64,000 nt of DNA, from the NCBI GenBank assembly GCA_031271685.1, contig JAISVH010000119.1, forward strand, positions 362-64,361. Reading direction: 5' to 3'. The position numbers were made by a program, and so were the translations under genes. Below the pieces are notes generated by a model. The model saw only the letters and a program-made list of their open reading frames with translations, was not told the origin of the DNA and made no database searches. Source of the stretch: Eubacterium sp. (GTDB taxonomy: Bacteria; Bacillota; Clostridia; Oscillospirales; Ruminococcaceae). Shown piece after piece: positions 7,585 through 63,945 of this stretch. Each line of letters starts with the position of its first letter. Within the stretch, counting starts at the first letter, position 1.

Positions 7585-7599
7585 AAAATATGTAGAAAA

Positions 7600-7716
7600 G
7601 TAAGGACGCCTTCGGCGGTACGCGGCGCATGCCGCGTCTTAAAAACGCATTTAGCGTTTTTAACCTGACCAACTATAACCGCATTACTGGAAGCGGCTAC
7701 GCCGCAGATGTTTGAA
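7600..7716. repeat. Repeat locus R3: F left half (reverse, 7600-7677) plus short BA element (7674-7716)
   Basis: The reverse complement matches TATAG..GGTCA..TTAAAAACGCTAAATGCG...GACGCGGCATGCGCCGCG of 24701. Ends in CCGCAGATGTTTGAA. Confidence 0.85.
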
Positions 7717-8140: not shown

Positions 8141-9556
8141 ATGCTTAAGAAAATCTTAGCTATCGTTGCAGCAGGCGCTATCGCCGCTTCAGCAATGATA
8201 ACCAGCGTTTCGGCAGAAACACAGACAATTGAAAAAGTTCTTTACACCAATGACTTAAACGTTGGCACCGTAAAGTTCCAGGCTGACATCCCGTTAGGCA
8301 GTTATAAAGTTGACAATACCAGACAAGGTTATTTCCAAATCGTTCTTCCCGCAAACATTACACTTGATTATGATAACACCGGCAACACATACATCGACAC
8401 AACAACTTTTAGAATCCAGGCTAACTCTCTCGATATAAACGGCGTTAAGCCTTTCTCTGATGTAGTTTCTTCCCGCACTATCGACAGAGATTTTACTCTT
8501 AAGATCACCACCGCAATCCTTGACAACAAAAACACTAGCGGATCTAACATTGATACCCTTTCAGGAAGCATCCATGAAATGGATATCGCAGCGGCTACCG
8601 CTAACAGAATCACTATTAAGGGCACACTTATTAAGCCTGACTTAGGTTCGGCTAACAATTATGGCCGTCTGACCAGTGAAGAAGAAGAGCTTTTGGGCTA
8701 TGCCGACAAACTTCGTTTCAAAGATTTCGGCAATGGCTTTAGGGCTAACCTTTCCACCATGTGGTTTGTTAGAACCGACTCTAATGGGGTAGAAACATCT
8801 CTTTGGGGCAGCTCTGGCGGATCCAGCACCGGAGACACCACCAACGCTAACCCTTATTATTTCCAGAACAACCTTGAGCTTGACGTTAGAAACGTTTCCA
8901 CTTTTGACGGCCAAGACACAAGCAGAACCCAAGTATTAGAGTCTCAGGCTTATACCCTTCGTGAAAAAGAAGCCCTCAGACAAGAAGGCGCAACCGTTGA
9001 ACTGGTAGTTGATCTTAACGCTACCTCTCTCGGCTCACATTCGCTCAGCTATGTTGAATGCGAAATTTATGACGAAGTTGAAGGCGAAGAAGGAAGACCT
9101 TTCGCTCTCATGATGGACGGCGCACAGGCTAAGGGCGTTCTCAGAATGGATCAAATCTATAATGAGCTCTATGACATTTATAACACACAGTTCACATTCA
9201 CCGCAGAGGATGAAATGACCCATTCAAGAAACAACTTCATCAAGAGCGCTAAGCTTGTAATCAGCTATGATGATGGTCTTGCAGGAGTTTTAGACGGCGA
9301 AGACGCTCTTGATCCCGAAGAAGAACCGGAACTCGTAATCGAAGATGAAGAAGTAGTTGACGAAGAAGAATCCGTTGAAGACATCGTTGACGAAGAAGTA
9401 GTTGACGAAGAAGTAGTTGACGAAGAAACAGTTGACGAAGAAACAGTTGACGAAGGCGTTGAAGCAGAATCTAACCCTAGCACAGGCGTTGCTATCGCAG
9501 TTGTTCCCGCTCTTATCGCAGGCGCAGCAGTAGTAGCTTCCCGCAAAAGAAAGTAA
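8141..9556 (+). CDS. Secreted cell-surface protein with acidic VVDEE repeats and a C-terminal sortase-type anchor
   Basis: Signal peptide ending VSA-ET. Acidic repeat block. NPSTG, then 17 hydrophobic aa, then SRKRK at the C-terminus. Strong GGAGGA RBS. Confidence 0.75.
   Translation: MLKKILAIVAAGAIAASAMITSVSAETQTIEKVLYTNDLNVGTVKFQADIPLGSYKVDNTRQGYFQIVLPANITLDYDNTGNTYIDTTTFRIQANSLDINGVKPFSDVVSSRTIDRDFTLKITTAILDNKNTSGSNIDTLSGSIHEMDIAAATANRITIKGTLIKPDLGSANNYGRLTSEEEELLGYADKLRFKDFGNGFRANLSTMWFVRTDSNGVETSLWGSSGGSSTGDTTNANPYYFQNNLELDVRNVSTFDGQDTSRTQVLESQAYTLREKEALRQEGATVELVVDLNATSLGSHSLSYVECEIYDEVEGEEGRPFALMMDGAQAKGVLRMDQIYNELYDIYNTQFTFTAEDEMTHSRNNFIKSAKLVISYDDGLAGVLDGEDALDPEEEPELVIEDEEVVDEEESVEDIVDEEVVDEEVVDEETVDEETVDEGVEAESNPSTGVAIAVVPALIAGAAVVASRKRK
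9356..9457 (+). repeat. In-frame 15-bp tandem repeat (GTTGACGAAGAAGTA / ...AACA), about 6 units, encoding (V/T)VDEE
   Basis: Consecutive units at 9386, 9401, 9416 and 9431. Degenerate units at 9356 and 9446. Confidence 0.9.
9473..9553 (+). other. Tripartite cell-wall sorting signal (NPSTG / hydrophobic segment / SRKRK)
   Basis: Translation NPSTG-VAIAVVPALIAGAAVVA-SRKRK forms the last 27 aa of the 8141..9556 protein. Confidence 0.7.
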
Positions 9557-9580
9557 TTTAAACATAAGTTTTAAATGAAT

Positions 9581-9612
9581 AAAAAAGAGAGCCCGTAAGG
9601 GTTCTCTTTTTT
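9581..9612. terminator. Bidirectional intrinsic terminator between the convergent surface-protein gene and leuB
   Basis: A-run, GAGAGCCC-GTAA-GGGTTCTC, T-run. Confidence 0.8.
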
Positions 9613-9723
9613 TATGTTTATTTGCAGGCGCGCGGCAGCTATTTATAAATTTATTGCTATAGTTGGTCGTTTAAAAACTCTGAATGAGTTTTTAAGACGC
9701 GGCGTTTGCCGAACTTACCTTGC

Positions 9724-10794
9724 TCATATCTCGTTTAAAACAGCCTTGCCCATTTCGCTGCAGGACAGTAACGACATGCCCGAACTCATTATATCAGCGG
9801 TGCGACAGCCTTTGTTAAGGGCGGAGTCCACCGCCTTTTCTATGTCGTTGGCCGCGGCTTCCATGTTAAGCGAAAACCTTAGCATCATAGCGGTGGATAG
9901 TATAGTCGCAAGCGGATTAGCTTTATCCTGCCCCGCTATATCCGGTGCCGAGCCGTGTATCGGCTCGTAAAGCCCGCACAAACCAACGCCTAAGCTGGCC
10001 GAAGGCAACATTCCAAGCGAACCGGTCAACATACTGGCTTCATCGGACAAGATATCCCCAAAAAGGTTTTCTGTCACGACAACGTCAAATTGGCGCGGAT
10101 TTCTAATCAGCTGCATGGCGGCGTTGTCTACCAACATATCAGATAACTCTAGATTTTTATATTCATTTTTTGAAAATTCTTGATGCACAATCTCTCGCCA
10201 AAGTCTTGACGAATCTAAAACGTTCGCTTTGTCAACGCTGATAACTTTTCCCCGTCTAAGCGAAGCCAACCGAAAAGCAACTTTGGCGATGCGGCTTATT
10301 TCATAATCTTTGTAGGCCATGGTGTCATAGGCGGTTCTATGTCCGTTTTCATCAATATAAGTCTCGCGCTTGCCGAAATATGCGCCCCCAATAAGTTCAC
10401 GGACAATTATCAAATCTATCTTTTGGCTATCTTTTAAAGGGCAGGCACCTGACAGCGCATCGATCAGTTTTACCGGTCGGATATTGGCGAATAGGCCCAA
10501 CGCTTTCCTAATTCCAAGCAGGCCGGCTTCGGGGCGCAAGTTACCTTCTCCTTTATCCCATTTTGGGCCGCCTACTGCTCCCAATAAAACGCTGTCGCTG
10601 TTTTTGCATATTTCGACCGTTTCCGCCGGGAGAGGTTCGCCTGTTTCATCAATCGCGATGCCGCCCATAAGCGCATAACTGAAATTAAAATGGGTATTGT
10701 ATCTCTCTCCTATTTTAGAAAGGATTTTTAACGCTTGTTCAACTATTTCGGGGCCTATGCCGTCGCCTTTTATTACCGCTATATTTTTTGTCAT
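9724..10794 (-). CDS. leuB: 3-isopropylmalate dehydrogenase
   Basis: 356 aa. [26 protein letters not shown] motif. Confidence 0.95.
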
Positions 10795-10796
10795 AA

Positions 10797-11282
10797 TTAC
10801 CTCTTTTTCAGAGAATTCAGCAATCCGCCCGCTTGGATTATTTCGCTTATAAATTCAGGGAATCCTTCGGCTTGATAGCTTTTATTTTTAGTTAAGTTTT
10901 CAATTTTTCCGGTTTCAAAGTTTACTTTAAGTTCATCGCCGCTTTGAATATCTTCCGCTGCTTCGGGACACTCCAGGATAGGAAGTCCGATATTTATGGA
11001 GTTTCTATAAAAAATCCGCGCAAAGGTATTGGCGATAACGCAGGAAACGCCGCTGTGCTTTATTGCTATAGGGGCATGTTCGCGTGAGCTGCCGCAGCCG
11101 AAATTGTCTTTTGCAACTATTATATCTCCTTTATTTACTTTTTTTACGAAATCGGCGTCGATATCCTCCATGCAATGTGAGGCCAATTCTTTAAAGTCGT
11201 TGGTGTTTAGATACCGTGCGGGGATTATAACGTCGGTATCAACGTTATCCCCATATTTAAAAGCTTTTCCGTGTGCGTTCAT
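10797..11282 (-). CDS. leuD: 3-isopropylmalate dehydratase small subunit
   Basis: 161 aa. [15 protein letters not shown] motif. Lies between leuC and leuB. Confidence 0.92.
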
Positions 11283-11305
11283 TAATAAAATTTCCTTTCT
11301 GGTGC

Positions 11306-12565
11306 TTATTCGGGCATTGCGATTTTTCCGGCTATTGCACTTGCTGCGGCAATTTGTGGATTAGCAAGATATACTTCGCTTTCGGTATGCCCCATCCTTC
11401 CAACAAAATTGCGGTTGGTGGTAGCTACGGCGCGTTCGCCGGCCGCTAAAATTCCCATATGTCCTCCGAGACAAGGACCGCAGGTAGGGGTTGAAAAAGC
11501 GCAACCGGCATCTATAAATATTTTTGCTAGACCTTCTTCGATACATTCTAAAAATATCTTTTGCGTTGCGGGAATTACAATACAGCGCACTCCATGGTGT
11601 ATCTTTTTGCCTTTTAAAATTTGCGCAGCCTGCCGCATGTCATGGAGCCTGCCGTTAGTGCAGCTCCCGATAACGACCTGGTCGATTTTAACGTTTTCTA
11701 TTTCATCGATAGTCTTTGTGTTTTCCGGTAAATGCGGGAAAGACACCGTAGGTTTTATATACGATAGGTCTATGTCTATGACTTTTTCATATTCCGCGTC
11801 GCTGTCGGGAGTTACAAACTGATACTTTCGGGTTACCCTGCGATTGACATAAGCCAAAGTCACTTCGTCAACTTCGAAAATCCCGTTTTTGGCGCCTGCC
11901 TCTATTGCCATATTAGCGATGCAAAGACGGTCGTCGATATTCAGGCTTTTAAGACCTTCCCCGCCAAACTCCATGGACTTGTAAAGCGCGCCATCCACGC
12001 CTATTTTACCTATTATATGAAGGATAACGTCTTTTCCGCTTACGTAATTATCTGTTTGCAGACGCCCGATGATATTAAACCGTATTGCGCCGGGGACTTT
12101 GAACCATGCTTCTCCGGTCGCCATTCCCGCCGCTAAGTCGGTGGACCCGACACCGGTTGAAAAAGCCCCTAGCGCCCCATATGTGCAGGTATGGCTGTCT
12201 GCGCCTATTATCAACTCTCCGGGAGCTGTTAGTCCTTTTTCGGGTAGCAACGCGTGTTCAACCCCCATATCTCCAGTATCGTAAAAATGTTTTATATCAT
12301 ATTTTCGTGCGAATTCGCGGCATTTTTTGCACTGTTCAGCCGCTTTAATATCCTTGTTTGGCGCGAAATGATCCATTATCAGCGCGATTTTGCTTTTATC
12401 AAATACCGAATCAAATCCTGCATTTTCAAATTCACTGATAGCGACGGGGCTAGTGATATCATTTCCCAAAGCCAAATCAAGCTTGGCTTTTATGAGTTGA
12501 CCCGCTTTAACGCTGTGTTTCTCCGCGTGACGGGCAAGAATTTTTTGTGACATTGTCATTCCCAT
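11306..12565 (-). CDS. leuC: 3-isopropylmalate dehydratase large subunit
   Basis: Aconitase-family motifs GADSHT and GSCTNGR. Start moved to MGMTMSQ (12565), which follows AAGGAG. The listed 12616 start is an upstream extension. Confidence 0.92.
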
Positions 12566-12589
12566 AAATAGCTCCTTTTTCTTTTTGAG

Positions 12590-12690
12590 ATGAAACAAAA
12601 AAATACAAATACTCAAACGGTAAAACTTTTAGCTTGTCTTACATGACAAAACTACGTAAAGTTAGCATGATACCGTCTGAGTATTTAAAA
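12590..12690 (-). promoter_or_regulatory. leuCDB leader with a long-range stem plus U-run (candidate attenuator)
   Basis: On the minus strand, AAATACTCAGACGGTA pairs with TACCGTTTGAGTATTT around a 48-nt loop and is followed by GTATTTTTTTG. No T-box motifs were seen. Confidence 0.45.
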
Positions 12691-12749
12691 ATGTTTATTA
12701 TATCCCCATTCTAACACGTAATTTTTATCTTGCGCTTTAAAAAATACTT

Positions 12750-12996
12750 AATAGTCAGTAACACACCTTAAGGTGTGCCGGCGGACTTTGCCAGCTATTT
12801 ATTGCCCATGCAACAAATACTCGGCAATTATTACGCGTCTTTTGCCGCCAAACCGCTTTAATTTTTCCTTAAATATCAATGGATATTCGCGTCAAAATTG
12901 CATTGTTTGACGACAAAAATCCTACGTTATATTTTGTCTGCTGTTTGTTGCAAGGGCAATAAAAACCCTTTATGGTTTTTAAATTGACTGACTATA
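12750..12996. repeat. Repeat locus R4: F right half interrupted by element H
   Basis: AATAGTCAGTAACACACCTTAAGG...GCCAGCTATT-TA-[H]-TA-AAAACCCTTTATGGTTTTTAAATTGACTGACTATA. Compare the intact copy at 31945-32021. Confidence 0.85.
12802..12959. mobile_element. MITE-like element H, copy 1 (158 bp, 16-bp TIR TTGCCCATGCAACAAA, flanked by TA/TA)
   Basis: TIRs and long imperfect hairpin arms. About 85% identical by eye to 55374..55527. Inserted in an F element whose paralogs show the empty site. Confidence 0.8.
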
Positions 12997-13074
12997 TCAA
13001 TAACATTACCTATCTTAGCGCTTTTTATAATATATCATAATATAATCAATTTGTCAAGGCCGGTGATGCCGCGG

Positions 13075-19337: not shown

Positions 19338-19483
19338 CTATAGGCTTATCAAAATTATAGTAAATTATAGCGAATTGCGTAAACATGGAAGCGAAATCCA
19401 TGTTTACGCCCGTCGCCGAAAGCGGCGCACCGCGGCAAAGCCACTGAGTTTATAGCATTTTGAAAACAGAGTAAAAAATAGCG
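19338..19483. repeat. Repeat locus R5: L fragment, C module, D fragment
   Basis: TATAGCGAATTGCGTAAACATGG...CCATGTTTACG...CGCCGAAAGCGGCG...TATAGCATTTTGAAAAC. Confidence 0.8.
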
Positions 19484-20915: not shown

Positions 20916-20969
20916 TATACCGCGCTTATGTCCCCCGCATATTAGGCGGTTTCGCCGCAGATGTTTGAA
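20916..20969 (+). repeat. Repeat locus R6: short BA element
   Basis: TATACCGCGCTTATGTCCCCCGCATATTAGGCGGTTTCGCCGCAGATGTTTGAA. Confidence 0.8.
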
Positions 20970-21105: not shown

Positions 21106-21202
21106 ATAGCCGCGTTTATGTCCCGCCTATTAGGCGGCGGGTGATTAATTTACTATAACGCTTGTTAAAACGCCGGAAGCGGATCTGCCGCAGATTTTTG
21201 AA
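21106..21202 (+). repeat. Repeat locus R7: full-length BA element (97 bp)
   Basis: ATAGCCGCGTTTATGTCCCGCCTATTAGGCGGCGGGTGATT...TATAACGCTTGTTAAAACGCCGGAAGCGGATCTGCCGCAGATTTTTGAA. Confidence 0.85.
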
Positions 21203-24686: not shown

Positions 24687-24700
24687 CAAAACGGTTCTGA

Positions 24701-24851
24701 TATAGCCGGTCATTTTAAAAACGCTAAATGCGGTTTTAAGACGCGGCATGCGCCGCGTGCCGACGAAGGCGGCCTTGTCTTGCTCATAATCAGTCGCGGG
24801 CTTTGCCCGCTGTTTAAAAACCCTTTAGGATTTTTAAATTAACTGACTATA
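24701..24851. mobile_element. MITE-like element F, full copy (151 bp), between the CARDB-repeat gene and the FtsX permease gene
   Basis: Ends TATAGCCGGTCATTTTAAAAACGCTAAATG / ...CCTTTAGGATTTTTAAATTAACTGACTATA form imperfect TIRs. About 80% identical by eye to 31871..32021. Confidence 0.85.
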
Positions 24852-24932
24852 TTTGGGCATGTTCGATAATAGGAAACTCATCGGCTGATATAATTAACCA
24901 TAAAAAACAACAAGTTAGCATGGTATGAAAAC

Positions 24933-28299: not shown

Positions 28300-28382
28300 T
28301 ATAGCAAGTTGCGTAAACATGGAAGTGAATTTCAAGTTTGCGCTCACCGCTGAAAGAGGCGCATTTCATCAAAGCCGCGCTG
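28300..28382. repeat. Repeat locus R10: C module, 27 nt upstream of the gpsA start
   Basis: TATAGCAAGTTGCGTAAACATGGAAGTGAATTTCAAGTTTGCG...CACCGCTGAAAGAGGCG. Confidence 0.8.
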
Positions 28383-29066: not shown

Positions 29067-29168
29067 TATAGTTTGAAATTATAGCTGCGTTCATGTCCCC
29101 AGCCCATTAGTTAATTTACTATAACGCTTGTTAAAACGCTAGAAGCGGCTCCGCTGCAGATGTTTGAA
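29067..29168 (+). repeat. Repeat locus R11: BA element between plsY and der
   Basis: ...ATAGCTGCGTTCATGTCCCC...TTAATTTACTATAACGCTTGTTAAAACGCTAGAAGCGGCTCCGCTGCAGATGTTTGAA. Confidence 0.8.
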
Positions 29169-31830: not shown

Positions 31831-31870
31831 TAGCGCGAATTTTCATTTCTCAACGGAGACAAATTTGCAA

Positions 31871-32021
31871 TATAGCTGGTCAGTTTTAAAACGCTAAATG
31901 CGTTTTTAAGACACGGCGCGCGCCGCCGAAGGCGGCCTTACCTTGCTGCATAGTCAGTCGCGCACCTTAAGGCTGCCCGCTGTTTAAAAACCCTTTAGGG
32001 CTTTTAAATTGACTGACTATA
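31871..32021. mobile_element. MITE-like element F, full copy (151 bp), abutting the stop codon of 32022..33356
   Basis: TATAGCTGGTCAGTTTTAAAACGCTAAATGCG...GTTTAAAAACCCTTTAGGGCTTTTAAATTGACTGACTATA. Confidence 0.85.
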
Positions 32022-33356
32022 TTATCTCTTTTCTTCCGGCTTAGCTTCATTTTCCGTCATCGAAAGGCCTAAAACCGCCATGAACATAGGGTATACCTGA
32101 ATCATAGTTACGCCGAAAAAAGCCCCTACAAGATATGCAAAGCCGCCGGATAAAAACACTATGTCGCATGCCCTTAAAGTCCTTCGGTTACGTAGCGCCC
32201 GCCAATAAACCATAAAACATCCTAAAGTATAGCAAAGCCCCGCCGGAATTCCGAAAAATGCCGTTTGCTGCAGATATTCGTTATGGGTGCGTTGCGCCTC
32301 GCCCGAGGCCTCTCCCAGCATATACCAAATGCCATCACTCCCCCACCCAAACACCGGTTTTTCTTTTATATATCCAAACGTGGTTTTCCAAAGCAGTATA
32401 CGGTTGGTTCCAAAACCGTCCTCGGCCTGGCCCAGAGCCACTTTAGATGTTTGGTCAACAAAAACATCAGCTTTTGCGGATATTGGAGTTTCTGTTTTGG
32501 TTACAATAAAAAACATAGCGATTGTTAAAACAGCTCCCGCAGCGGCTAAAACCTTATATTTCATGCCGTTATTTACCACGGCGAAGATAACGCACACTAA
32601 AATCATTCCCATTTCGATCGATACAAGCGCGCCTATCGAAGTAAGGAATAGAATGTAAATATAAGTAATAATAAAACCGACAGAGAATATTATCCGCCAC
32701 CATAACTTCTTTAAAAATACCGCTAAAGCTAGCATAAGAGAACCGGTCATAGCCAGGTAATAACCATGATGGTTATAATTCAAAAATACTCCGATATCCT
32801 TGTTGTACATTACTATTGCGGAAGTCTCTTGCGGATTGGCGCTAATATTTACATAAACGCCTAAAATAGCGAGCACGATAGCGCCTAGGGCAAATACAGC
32901 GGCTAAAAAGGTTTTATAGCCTTTCTTCTTGATAAATGAAGCCGCAAAAAAGATAAACACATACAGCGTAAAAGTAATAAGGCCCTCTCTTTTAAAGCTT
33001 AGTCCAAAAACATTTACCTGTGTAAATCCGTTATAGCAGGTGGAAATAAAAATCCAAACAATATAAAGAAAAAACAAAAGATAATCGAGATTATTTTTCG
33101 TTGCAGACTTTAATTTATCCCAAAAGCTTAAATTATTATGTTCCGATAAAAACAAAATGAATTTTATAGCCACTAAAACGGTGCAGATTCCCGCGCTTAT
33201 ATAAAAACCGTAAACAAAAACAAGTTCTTGCATGTGCCCGACGCTTCTGTTAACTAAATAAGAAAGTATAGGTAATGAGAGGATAAAAGCCATTAAAACA
33301 GTTAAAAAAAGCTCTAAATAGCGGTCTTTTTCTTTAGTTGACTTAATTTTGCCCAT
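32022..33356 (-). CDS. O-antigen ligase/polymerase-like (Wzy_C) membrane protein, paralog 2
   Basis: About 12 TM segments. RTHNEYLQQTAFFGIPAG motif region. About 75-80% identical by eye to the adjacent gene. Confidence 0.75.
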   Translation of the reverse strand: MGKIKSTKEKDRYLELFLTVLMAFILSLPILSYLVNRSVGHMQELVFVYGFYISAGICTVLVAIKFILFLSEHNNLSFWDKLKSATKNNLDYLLFFLYIVWIFISTCYNGFTQVNVFGLSFKREGLITFTLYVFIFFAASFIKKKGYKTFLAAVFALGAIVLAILGVYVNISANPQETSAIVMYNKDIGVFLNYNHHGYYLAMTGSLMLALAVFLKKLWWRIIFSVGFIITYIYILFLTSIGALVSIEMGMILVCVIFAVVNNGMKYKVLAAAGAVLTIAMFFIVTKTETPISAKADVFVDQTSKVALGQAEDGFGTNRILLWKTTFGYIKEKPVFGWGSDGIWYMLGEASGEAQRTHNEYLQQTAFFGIPAGLCYTLGCFMVYWRALRNRRTLRACDIVFLSGGFAYLVGAFFGVTMIQVYPMFMAVLGLSMTENEAKPEEKR

Positions 33357-33371
33357 ATTTGATCTCTCCTC

Positions 33372-34727
33372 CTATTTTTTTATCGCATTTGTGTTTACAT
33401 ATGAAACTCTCGCCGAACTGTTTTCAGTCATTGAAAGACCTAGCGCCGCCATAAACATTGGATATACCTGCACCATCGTTACCCCAAAAAACGCCCCGAC
33501 AAGATAAGCGAAACTGCCCGATAAAAACGCGATGTCACATGGTCTTAGGTTTTTACGGTTGCGGAGCGCGCGCCAGTAAACCATAAAGCATCCAAAAACA
33601 TAACAAAGGCCCGCAGGTATGCCATAAAATGCGGTTTGCTGCAAATATTCGTTATGAGTGCGTTGCGCTTCGCTGGATATTTTTTCTAATTCATACCAAA
33701 TTCCATCACTGCCCCACCCAAACACAGGTTTTTCTTTTATAAAATCTACCGTAGCTTTCCACAGCAGAATCCGGTTAGTTCCAAAGCTATCCTCCGCCTG
33801 ACCCACAGCCACTTTAGAGGTTTGATCAACAAAATTATCCGCCTTGTCAGATATCGGAGTTTCTGCTTTAGTAACTATAAAAAACAGCGCCACTGTTAAT
33901 ATTGCCCCAAAAATGGCAATAATTTTATGCTTTATGTCTTTGCTAATGACCGCATAAATAATACACACCAAAAGCATCCCCATTTCAAGAGATACAAGCG
34001 CTCCGATGGAAGTTAAATAAAGAACGTAAATATATGTAAGAACAAAACCAAAAAAGAATGTTATCCGCCACCATAACGTCTTTAAAAAAACCGCGAGAGC
34101 CAACATAAGCGAACCGGTCATGGCAAGGTAATAGCCGTGATGGTTATAGTTTGAAAAAACACCAATGCTTCCGCTGAGCAATACTTTCTCAGCCATTTCT
34201 TGGGGATTGGCGCTCATATTTACATATACCCCTAAAATGGCGAGCACAATTGCACCTAAAGCAAAAACAATCGCCAAAAAGGTCTTATACTTTTCTTTTT
34301 TTATGAATGAAGCGGCAAAAAAAATAAAAACATATAGCGTAAACGTGATCAAGCCTTCCCTTTTAAAGCTAAGCCCTAAAACGTTAACCCGCGTAAAGCC
34401 GTTATAGCAAATAGAAATAAAAATCCATATAATATAAACGAAGAACAACAGATAATCAAGATTTTTTGTCACAATCAGCTTTAATTTAGCTGAAAAAGTT
34501 AAAAGCTTATGCTCAAATATAATTGAAACGAACTTTATAGCTACCAATGCCGTACAAATGCCCGCGCTTATAAAAAAACCGTAAATGAACATTTGATCCT
34601 GCCTGTGTCCGACGGCATTGTTAGTTATATAAGAAAGTATGGGCAGTGAAAGGATAAAGGCAATCACAATAGTTAAAATAAGCTCTAAATATCCGCTTTT
34701 ATCCCTTATTGACCTGGTTTTGCTCAT
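33372..34727 (-). CDS. O-antigen ligase/polymerase-like (Wzy_C) membrane protein, paralog 1
   Basis: About 12 TM segments. RTHNEYLQQTAFYGIPAG. Tandem duplicate of 32022..33356. Confidence 0.75.
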   Translation of the reverse strand: MSKTRSIRDKSGYLELILTIVIAFILSLPILSYITNNAVGHRQDQMFIYGFFISAGICTALVAIKFVSIIFEHKLLTFSAKLKLIVTKNLDYLLFFVYIIWIFISICYNGFTRVNVLGLSFKREGLITFTLYVFIFFAASFIKKEKYKTFLAIVFALGAIVLAILGVYVNMSANPQEMAEKVLLSGSIGVFSNYNHHGYYLAMTGSLMLALAVFLKTLWWRITFFFGFVLTYIYVLYLTSIGALVSLEMGMLLVCIIYAVISKDIKHKIIAIFGAILTVALFFIVTKAETPISDKADNFVDQTSKVAVGQAEDSFGTNRILLWKATVDFIKEKPVFGWGSDGIWYELEKISSEAQRTHNEYLQQTAFYGIPAGLCYVFGCFMVYWRALRNRKNLRPCDIAFLSGSFAYLVGAFFGVTMVQVYPMFMAALGLSMTENSSARVSYVNTNAIKK

Positions 34728-39495: not shown

Positions 39496-39528
39496 GTAAT
39501 TATGACAGATGATATGTTTTAAAAAACA

Positions 39529-39565
39529 TATAACACTGGAAGAGGTTACGCCGCAGATGTTTGAA
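39529..39565 (+). repeat. Repeat locus R15: minimal BA unit (37 bp)
   Basis: TATAACACTGGAAGAGGTTACGCCGCAGATGTTTGAA. Confidence 0.8.
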
Positions 39566-47597: not shown

Positions 47598-47606
47598 TTA
47601 GTCGGC

Positions 47607-48329
47607 TTAACGTGCGCCTTTCCCGGATAAAACCGCTATAACCGTTTTAAATATTATAAGAAAATCAAGACAAAAGGATTGATGATCGACATAATACAGC
47701 TCTAACTCCACCCTTTCATCGTAACTAACGCTGCTCCTTCCGCTAACCTGCCAATAACCTGTAAGACCGGGCTTTACACTTAAAAACCTATCTTTATTGT
47801 CTCCATATTTTTCAAGTTCTTGAAAAACTATAGGACGTGGCCCGACAATACTCAGGTTGCCGATGAAAATGTCCCAAATCTGTGGAAGCTCGTCTAAACT
47901 CGTTTTTCTCAGCAACTTTCCGATATTCGTTATTCGCGGGTCGTCTTTAAGCTTAAAGTTTTCTTCGAACTCTTTTTTTTGCTCTGGTGAAAACTTCGTT
48001 ATAAGGTCTTGAGCATTGCAGACCATGCTCCTGAATTTATGCACGGTTATTGGTTTGCCATGAAGACCTAAACGGCTATGGCTAAAAAAAACCGCTCCTC
48101 TTGATTCTTTTGGCTTTTTTAGGTCTTCAAGCTTAATAAGCGCGTATATAATCAAAAATAAAGGCGAGAATAGTATCAGAGATAATATTGACAGGACAAT
48201 GTCTATAGTCCTTTTTATCAAACGGTAAACGCTGTGTTTAAAGGCTCGGGTGTTAAGCTGACGATTTAAGCGGCCGTCAGCTTCGCTTTTTTGTTCGGAC
48301 TCGGGATCGGATATTTCAAAGTCGGTCAT
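47607..48329 (-). CDS. Undecaprenyl-phosphate sugar phosphotransferase (bacterial sugar transferase family)
   Basis: Single N-terminal TM and the LSIVGPRP and DELPQ motifs typical of the small monotopic PGT family. Confidence 0.85.
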   Translation of the reverse strand: MTDFEISDPESEQKSEADGRLNRQLNTRAFKHSVYRLIKRTIDIVLSILSLILFSPLFLIIYALIKLEDLKKPKESRGAVFFSHSRLGLHGKPITVHKFRSMVCNAQDLITKFSPEQKKEFEENFKLKDDPRITNIGKLLRKTSLDELPQIWDIFIGNLSIVGPRPIVFQELEKYGDNKDRFLSVKPGLTGYWQVSGRSSVSYDERVELELYYVDHQSFCLDFLIIFKTVIAVLSGKGAR

Positions 48330-50743: not shown

Positions 50744-50974
50744 TATAACCGCGTTTATGGTCCCTGTCTCTTAGACGGCGGGCTGTAATCGTTTAACTTT
50801 AAATTTTCTAAATTTAAAGTTAAACGAGGATTGCTCTGTTTGCGAACAGCGACCGCAACGCGCACGCTGCGGAACCCCTTTGGCTTAAAAAATACTTAGT
50901 ATTTTTTAAGCCAAAGGGTATACATGCTGACGCTGGTTAAAACACTGGAAGAGGCTGCTCCTCAGATGTTTGAA
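50744..50974 (+). repeat. Repeat locus R18: expanded BA element (231 bp) with an internal E hairpin, a GC-rich segment and a 43-bp perfect palindrome
   Basis: Starts TATAACCGCGTTTATGG. E at about 50788-50830. Palindrome CCCTTTGGCTTAAAAAATAC-TTA-GTATTTTTTAAGCCAAAGGG at 50876-50918. Ends ...CTGGAAGAGGCTGCTCCTCAGATGTTTGAA. Confidence 0.8.
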
Positions 50975-51022
50975 TTTATTTTATCATATAAGGTTTTAAA
51001 AATCAAGTTAAATTTTAAAAGT

Positions 51023-51167
51023 AATTTATATATAGAGTAAAAAAATGTGAAAAAAACTGTATCTTTTATACAAAAAAATAGCCAAACAAAAAGCAATTTA
51101 TATATAGAGTAAAAAATTGTGAAAAAAAACTGTACGTTTATACAAAAAAATTCGCCAACCAAAAGGT
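51023..51167. repeat. Two tandem copies of a 72-bp AT-rich unit
   Basis: AATTTATATATAGAGTAAAAAA(A/T)TGTGAAAAAAACTGTA...TATACAAAAAAAT starts at 51023 and again at 51095. Confidence 0.85.
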
Positions 51168-51195: not shown

Positions 51196-51271
51196 TGGAG
51201 CTTCTAATCAGATTCGAACTGATGACCTCGTCCTTACCAAGGACGCGCTCTGCCGACTGAGCTATAGAAGC
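51196..51271 (-). tRNA. tRNA-Thr (anticodon GGU), CCA encoded
   Basis: Manual cloverleaf: acceptor GCTTCTA/TAGAAGC, D arm GCTC/GAGC, anticodon arm CGTCC-TTGGTAA-GGACG, T arm ATCAG-TTCGAAT-CTGAT, then T-CCA. Confidence 0.9.
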
Positions 51272-55274: not shown

Positions 55275-55373
55275 TAATTGAAAATTATTCGTGTCTGTCA
55301 GTTTGCCGTGAAAACGGCAATTCAGGAATAAATTTAAATCATTTAAATTTGCCGCGAAGCGACACTAAATTTA

Positions 55374-55527
55374 TTGCCCCTGCACCAAACACTCGACAAT
55401 TATTACGTATCTTTTGTCGCTGAACCGCTTTAATTTTTTTAAATATAAATGGATGTTCGCGTCAAAATTGCATTGTTGACGATAAAATACTACGTGATAT
55501 TTTTTCTAATGTTTGTTGCAGGGGCAA
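55374..55527. mobile_element. MITE-like element H, copy 2 (154 bp), in the rpoB-rpoC spacer, flanked by TA/TA
   Basis: TTGCCCCTGCACCAAAC...GTTTGTTGCAGGGGCAA. TA at 55372-73 and at 55528-29. Confidence 0.8.
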
Positions 55528-55567
55528 TAATTATTAATTTGTCAATTGAATAAACGGGGGTATAGAT

Positions 55568-59420: not shown

Positions 59421-59550
59421 TATAGCATTTTGAAAAACGAAAACGTTTTATCAAAATGCTATAGTTATAACCTCGTTTAATTTTAAATTTATTAAATTAA
59501 AGTTAAACGATTATAAAACACTGAAGGAGACTCCGCCGCAGATGTTTGAA
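59421..59550 (+). repeat. Repeat locus R20: D hairpin, E hairpin, BA right end, just after the rpoC stop
   Basis: TATAGCATTTTGAAAAACG-AAAA-CGTTTTATCAAAATGCTATA; CGTTTAATTTTAAATTTATTAAATTAAAGTTAAACG; ...CTGAAGGAGACTCCGCCGCAGATGTTTGAA. Confidence 0.85.
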
Positions 59551-63836: not shown

Positions 63837-63945
63837 TATAGCAAATTGCGTAAACATGTAAGTGAATTCCATGCTTACGATCGCCGCTGAAAGCGGCAGT
63901 GTTTATAGCGTTTTGAAAAACGCAAACGTTTTATCAACATTATCT
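63837..63945. repeat. Repeat locus R23: C module plus D hairpin, 16 nt upstream of the nnr start
   Basis: TATAGCAAATTGCGTAAACATGTAAGTGAATTCCATGCTTACG-ATCGCCGCTGAAAGCGGCAG-TGTTTATAGCGTTTTGAAAAACGCAAACGTTTTATC. Confidence 0.85.

Follow-up and report, generated by a model that had tools for sequence, protein, structure and literature searches.

The window, i.e. the whole 64-kb stretch of DNA that was analysed, is occupied by housekeeping genes, namely gyrB/gyrA, fhs, leuBCD, a P-type ATPase gene, der, plsY, gpsA, rpoB and rpoC, and no transposase of any kind was found among its ORFs. The spacer between leuC and the ATPase gene contains a copy of a short repeat, H1, which lies inside a copy of another repeat, F. 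The second copy, H2, lies between rpoB and rpoC at a distance of 38 nt from the TTG start of rpoC, and the Shine-Dalgarno region between H2 and rpoC is intact. The two copies have the same orientation in the window, H1 being antisense to its flanking genes (both on the minus strand) and H2 sense to its own. The features referred to below are the following:

12668..12799 (+): left part of F12, the F copy in which H1 lies; diverged, with an approximate left terminus at about 12668
12800..12801 (no strand): TA, left copy of the H1 target-site duplication, read from the sequence; a single TA is present at the homologous site in the uninterrupted F copies
12802..12959 (+): H1, a 158-bp non-coding element with terminal inverted repeats (TIRs), a probable MITE; left TIR 12802-12817, right TIR 12944-12959
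12960..12961 (no strand): TA, right copy of the H1 target-site duplication; the alignment score is maximal when H1 and one TA (160 nt) are removed
12962..12999 (+): right end of F12 with the terminal ...TGACTGACTATAT; its 38 nt are 92-95 % identical to positions 116-153 of F24/F31 (E = 5e-9)
24700..24853 (+): F24, an uninterrupted F copy, in which the TA at 24815-24816 represents the paralogous empty site
31870..32023 (+): F31, an uninterrupted F copy, in which the TA at 31985-31986 represents the paralogous empty site
55372..55529 (+): H2 with its flanking TAs; H2 proper occupies 55374-55527 (154 bp), the TAs 55372-55373 and 55528-55529

A TIR search allowing up to 3 mismatches, blastn and an nhmmer profile all revealed exactly two H copies in the window, H1 and H2, situated 42.6 kb apart. 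Their identity is 86 % over 158 columns (blastn E = 8e-41), i.e. they have diverged by 14 %. A weak H-like match at 47602-47692 (nhmmer E = 0.15, 70 % in blastn) is positioned inside a sugar-transferase ORF and was put down to chance similarity of AT-rich DNA.

Anatomy of H

The 16-nt TIR TTGCCCNTGCANCAAA occupies the exact ends of both copies, and its arms are complementary at 15 of the 16 positions in each. When an inverted-repeat finder was used, the arms reached 20 nt in H1 (12798-12817 / 12944-12963, 95 %, TA and TT included) and 29 nt in H2 (55371-55399 / 55502-55530, 86 %). Fourteen of the 16 positions are invariant among the four TIR instances, whereas the interior differs at approximately 16 % of positions, a pattern consistent with constraint on putative transposase binding sites. 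Over their full length, both copies also align to the H profile in reverse complement (nhmmer E = 3e-12 and 1e-9), and the element is an imperfect palindrome throughout. As RNA, the copies are predicted to form a rod (z = -6.5 for H2 and -7.2 for H1), with energies of -49 and -56 kcal/mol, respectively. MITEs built from two ends of an insertion sequence (IS) usually take the form of such an imperfect palindrome or rod.

The coding capacity of H is nil: the ORFs contained wholly inside it do not exceed 27 aa, and H1 contains none of at least 30 aa. A 515-aa chimera of the six-frame stop-free segments of H1 and H2, compared with 5.8 billion proteins, gave nothing at E <= 10. The possibility that H is a structured RNA was also considered and rejected. 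Only tRNA scored above the gathering threshold in Rfam, and nothing was found in 12650-13050 at E <= 1; moreover, the two copies are oppositely oriented relative to transcription, and the combination of an antisense H1 with a sense H2 argues against a strand-specific cis-regulatory RNA.

Promoter-like sites were noted in and around H. Both copies carry TTGACG-N16/17-TATTTT on the plus strand (12907-12935 and 55476-55503), oriented toward the right end of H and, in H2, toward rpoC; the site is weak (9/12 in each copy) and occurs at near the rate seen in shuffled sequences. On the minus strand, just downstream of the ATPase stop codon and directed toward leuC, there is another promoter-like site at 13057-13029 (TTGACA-17-TATATT with TG, 11/12). 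If it is real, the leader of leuCDB would be about 460 nt long, with F12 and H1 transcribed within it. No T-box or other riboswitch was found with Rfam in the predicted leuC leader.

Junctions of H with F and with unique DNA

The order read directly in the H1 region is GCCAGCTATT (12790-12799), TA, TTGCCCATGCAACAAA (12802-12817) ... TTTGTTGCAAGGGCAA (12944-12959), TA, AAAACCCTTTATGG. The corresponding place in the intact F copies, at 24805-24829 and 31975-31999, reads GCCCGCTGTT-TA-AAAACCCTTTAGG, with a single TA in each. The positions given for these strings in the original prediction deviate slightly and without consequence: the starts at 24808 and 31976 were off by 3 and 1 nt, respectively, and the H1-flanking string begins at 12790 and not at 12791. 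It had also placed a 158-bp element with 16-bp TIRs exactly at the TA of F, with TA on both sides, and a second copy at 55374-55527 between TA and TA, and both descriptions agree with the sequence.

Removal of H1 together with one TA (160 nt) made the flanks collinear with F24 and F31 in a MAFFT alignment, and the ungapped match across the rejoined junction comprised 43/48 and 44/48 nt, respectively. Excisions of 156, 158, 160, 162 and 164 nt were compared, and the score peaked at 160 nt against both F copies. The empty sites of H1 are paralogous, i.e. they are provided by other F copies and not by the same locus in a sister strain. The left part of F12 was delimited from the MAFFT alignment with F24 and F31 after the excision and from an inverted repeat, 12668-12691 / 12976-12999, which is 75 % complementary. 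F12 (approximately 12668-12999) is conserved in its right 38 nt and around the F31-specific CACCTTAAGG segment, and 12751-12782 matches positions 81-111 of F31 in blastn; its left half is strongly diverged.

The duplicated flank is exactly 2 bp at both H copies, since at 3 nt the left side reads TTA and the right side TAA. The homology between H1 and H2 ends at the ends of the TIRs plus a few A/T bases, whether judged by pairwise alignment, blastn or nhmmer. The boundaries of H defined by the end of the H1/H2 homology and those defined by the indel relative to F24 and F31 coincide to the base, which supports H as a discrete insertion. There is no F sequence around H2, whose flanks are unique in the window and whose reconstructed target, ATT-TA-ATT, is a plain AT-rich spacer. 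The occurrence of H2 alone, without F, indicates that H is an independent unit and not an ancestral part of F.

The clean 160-nt indel bounded by TA, by which the three F copies differ, is by itself symmetric between insertion and deletion. H could in principle be ancestral to this variant of F, with F24 and F31 having arisen by precise deletion of H between the TAs, through excision or microhomology. We consider this very unlikely, because H carries its own TIRs, H2 has the same ends and the same flanking TAs in the absence of any F sequence, and the partial F copies at 7589-7677 and 9658-9728 are without H as well. Even if true, excision would still make H mobile.

The same junctions bear on the type of enzyme involved. 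From the sequence alone, a duplicated TA looks the same as one brought in by a 160-nt element that does not duplicate its target, and the filled and empty sites fit equally well the insertion of such an element after TTTA. Furthermore, the five bases before both H copies are ATTTA and the bases after both are TAA. A single-strand transposase of the IS200/IS605 (HUH) type could have inserted H 3' of ATTTA with no duplication, the right TA being element-borne as in a PATE-like MITE. However, IS200/IS605 elements and their MITEs have no terminal inverted repeats and possess a separate subterminal hairpin at each end. H has TIRs of 16-20 nt exactly at its termini, and its sole local hairpin, TTGCC...GGCAA at the left end of H1, is not conserved in H2, which renders an IS200/IS605 origin highly improbable. 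Insertion of H at TA with a 2-bp duplication is the reading followed below.

H1 was inserted at the TA in the middle of TTTAAA, where a subterminal hairpin of F, TTTAAAAACCC...GGTTTTTAAA, has its base, 36 nt from the right end of F. The original prediction had suggested that the TATA ends of the modules serve as targets and thereby produce the mosaic of repeats; H1, sitting at an internal TA, lends no support to this idea.

F itself was observed to be MITE-like: it is about 154 bp long, with imperfect TIRs of approximately 41 nt (ATATAG(C/T)C(G/A)GTCA... / ...TGACTGACTATAT; TATA ends), a GC-rich centre and a TA adjoining every end. The partial F copies at 7589-7677 (-) and 9658-9728 (+) are truncated left halves joined to unrelated sequence. 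Several other intergenic repeat families are present in the window. One of them (families D5/D6) occurs seven times in one orientation (7679-7716, 20932-20969, 21165-21202, 29131-29168, 39528-39565, 50937-50974 and 59513-59550), with a short GC hairpin (e.g. GCGGC-TAC-GCCGC) and the conserved end CAGATGTTTGAA. Another, the 77-nt repeat D9, is a TATAG-ended module that begins TATAGC(G/A)A(A/G)TTGCGTAAACATGGAAG and is found in three copies (19366-19442, 28300-28376 and 63837-63913). Duplications of other kinds were seen as well. An AT-rich 72-nt tandem duplication (51017-51160, 81 % identity) lies between an MCP gene, a tRNA gene and rpoB, beside tRNA-Thr(GGT) at 51196-51271 (-). The ORFs 32022-33356 and 33372-34727 (-) are tandem paralogues encoding O-antigen-ligase-like (Wzy_C) membrane proteins, with 73-80 % nucleotide identity over more than 800 nt.

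Independent assembly, related genomes and wider searches

The source is apparently an uncultured Oscillospiraceae genome and short repeats are hazardous for assembly, so the nested arrangement could be a mis-join at short repeats in a metagenome-assembled contig. A separate assembly was available in the form of a Logan contig of SRR14710911 (3472 nt), which corresponds to approximately 9400-12869 of the window and is identical in sequence. Over 304 nt, from leuC across the left part of F and the TA to a point 68 nt into H1, it shows not one difference, and there it stops, as is expected at a repeat; the left junction is thereby reproduced, and the F-left/TA/H1 order is confirmed from reads. 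The right junction restores the collinearity of F exactly, unlike a random mis-join, and the 14 % difference between H1 and H2 means that H1 is not a collapsed or borrowed H2. Despite the break of the Logan contig inside H1, an artefact is therefore scarcely credible.

Both ends of the Logan contig are located at repeats. The break inside H1 is at most a hint of another near-identical H copy in the SRR14710911 sample. The other end falls in the acidic tandem-repeat region of the ORF 8141-9556. In this ORF, whose 471-aa product has no Pfam match, 9316-9467 is a tandem repeat with a 15-nt period (GACGAAGAAGTAGTT-like) that encodes an acidic stretch rich in D, E and V.

Exact-protein look-ups with LeuC, RpoB, RpoC and the ATPase, carried out to find sister strains, returned one Logan contig only, identical to the window. 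A cluster look-up in a collection of 15 billion proteins revealed no relatives with at least 90 % identity to LeuC, LeuD, LeuB or RpoC beyond this genome. The best named relatives by RpoC are MAGs labelled Oscillospiraceae bacterium, the closest two being 86 and 81 % identical. Four Oscillospiraceae with RpoC identities of 80-86 % were used for comparison, and neither H nor F was found in the approximately 100 kb of their DNA examined, rpoB-rpoC spacers included. The rpoB-rpoC spacer, measured up to the conserved TTG start, is 293 nt long in the window vs. approximately 32, 131, 85 and 57 nt in the four relatives, whose spacers are too diverged to pinpoint the exact empty site of H2. As H is missing from these spacers, H2 is not ancestral at this locus. 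The claim of the original prediction that H has transposed is thus borne out by three lines of evidence: the agreement of the two definitions of its boundaries, the presence of H2 without F, and the absence of H from the rpoB-rpoC spacers of the four relatives.

The same spacer contains a second segment that the four relatives lack. The stretch of about 97 nt between the rpoB stop codon and H2 (55275-55371) is absent from the shorter spacers of the four relatives, is unique in the window and holds a TTGCCG-TGAAAA-CGGCAA hairpin and a AAATTTAAAT/ATTTAAATTT palindrome. This stretch is possibly a further insertion, or else a regulatory segment specific to the lineage.

Further H copies and a partner transposase were sought in sequence collections. 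The TIR pair was scanned for as TTGCCCNTGCA-N(120-150)-TGCANGGGCAA, which gave 28 stretches in GTDB species genomes and 62 in JGI metagenomes, none of which aligns to H beyond chance. The best global score among them was 21, in comparison to 111 for H1 vs. H2, and most were unrelated long palindromes. Viral contigs contained 0 matches for the TIR-pair pattern and 0 for an internal 20-mer of H, and H had no blastn match in plasmids or phages. A single 16-nt TIR proved too unspecific as a query, with random matches among those listed. No IS with ends matching those of H was found by blastn against plasmids and phages or in the TIR-pair scans of genomes and metagenomes. A MITE family usually comprises many copies, and the n = 2 seen within the window is a point against H as a MITE.

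Proposed origin of H and comparison with known elements

H is shorter than 300 bp and non-coding, has TIRs at its exact ends and is accompanied by a duplication evident from filled vs. empty sites, all of which are features of MITEs. The best explanation, to which we assign a probability of roughly 0.85, regards H as a non-autonomous TIR transposon, i.e. a MITE, derived from an IS, mobilised in trans and inserted at TA with a 2-bp duplication. H would be a non-coding derivative of an insertion sequence, about 155 bp in length, that retained the two ends with their 16-nt TIRs. A transposase supplied in trans would bind the TIRs and excise or copy the element, which would then integrate at a TA dinucleotide through a 2-nt staggered cut, the TA being duplicated upon repair. 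One such integration into TTTAAA of an older F in the leuC-ATPase spacer would produce the order F-left/TA/H1/TA/F-right, and a second would have taken place at a TA in the rpoB-rpoC spacer. We infer that F is the older element and that H arrived later. The 86 % identity between the H copies suggests that the insertions are old, with nothing suggesting current mobility; transposition of H is probably historical and the family now inactive.

The transposase most probably belonged to the IS630 family, an assignment to which the 2-bp TA duplication (n = 2) is the one feature that points. IS630 is favoured as the prokaryotic family with an obligatory TA duplication; in IS630/Tc1-mariner elements the duplication of the TA target is the rule without exception, and it is only occasional in other families. 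The arrangement expected of an IS630-derived MITE, TA on either side, was seen in both copies (n = 2). Duplications of 2-4 or 2-3 bp are made by IS427 and ISL2 (IS5 subgroups) or by IS30. It is possible, though less likely than an IS630 origin, that H, as a TIR MITE that duplicates 2 bp, stems from one of these non-IS630 DDE families or is a Correia-like orphan. Such an origin would agree with the small number of TA duplications (n = 2), with the lack of an IS630-type transposase or TIR match in the window and the collections searched, and with the example of the Correia elements, which duplicate TA and whose transposase is unknown (PMC2229807). Against it, two independent insertions of H each duplicated exactly TA and nothing longer. 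An IS630-type enzyme thus stays the preferred source of mobility for H.

The kind of element represented by H is already known, but the family itself appears new, no similar sequence having been found in the collections searched. In bacterial genomes, MITEs that duplicate TA are textbook knowledge, as is the nesting of repeats, and H leaves the understanding of transposition unchanged. The value of the locus lies in a base-resolved case of one probable MITE inserted into another, MITE-like repeat in an uncultured Oscillospiraceae, and in the definition of what is apparently a previously unseen MITE family with the TIR TTGCCCNTGCANCAAA and a TA duplication. The nesting of H in F explains part of the mosaic of intergenic repeats in this genome and flags points at which assemblies may break. 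A long hairpin is now recognised in each of two transcribed regions, namely the rpoB-rpoC spacer and the predicted leuC leader. A broader scenario, which we regard as improbable, is that the lineage possesses private TA-targeting MITE families (H, F and the TATAG-ended modules) that would prefer each other's AT-rich hairpins and in this way build the intergenic mosaic, and that some copies would have been co-opted, H2 as a hairpin of about 150 nt or an internal promoter between rpoB and rpoC, and F12 with H1 as part of a leuC leader devoid of a T-box.

TIRs, TA termini and target-site duplications are typical of published bacterial MITEs such as Correia, RUP, ERIC and Nezha (PMC2229807). The RUP element of Streptococcus pneumoniae, whose presumed source of transposase is IS630-Spn1 (PMC2229807), resembles H in being small, non-coding, intergenic and bounded by TIRs, in inserting at TA in a Firmicute host and in being found within other repeats or IS elements (PMC2229807, PMC3049150). 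It differs in its length (107 bp vs. 154-158 bp for H), its TIRs (9 bp vs. 16 nt), its copy number (about 100 vs. two known copies) and the existence of a candidate IS partner. RUP, a family limited to another genus, presumably shares no sequence similarity with H.

The Correia (NEMIS) elements of Neisseria, of 100-155 bp, resemble H in that they have long TIRs, duplicate a TA target, form a rod-like hairpin when transcribed, are located within operons and leaders and were defined as elements by filled and empty sites (PMC2229807). Unlike H, they are present in hundreds of copies and are confined to Neisseria. The Correia TIR (26 bp, TATAG...) presumably differs from the H TIR (TTGCCC...) and is, if anything, closer to the termini of F. 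Nezha, an IS630-derived MITE of cyanobacteria, was assigned by its TA duplication, as H was here, and also because its TIRs are similar to the ends of an element of the IS630 family (cited in PMC3049150). It has a partner IS with matching TIRs (proposed to be ISNpu3-like), whereas none was found for H in the window or the collections searched.

Insertion of small repeats into one another has been reported in S. pneumoniae (PMC3049150). The clustered, mutually inserted BOX, RUP and SPRITE repeats of this species and the BIME/NIME mosaics represent the same phenomenon as the insertion of H into F. The present case differs from them in the families involved and in its uncultured Oscillospiraceae host, and its nesting is resolved to the base by the TA duplication.
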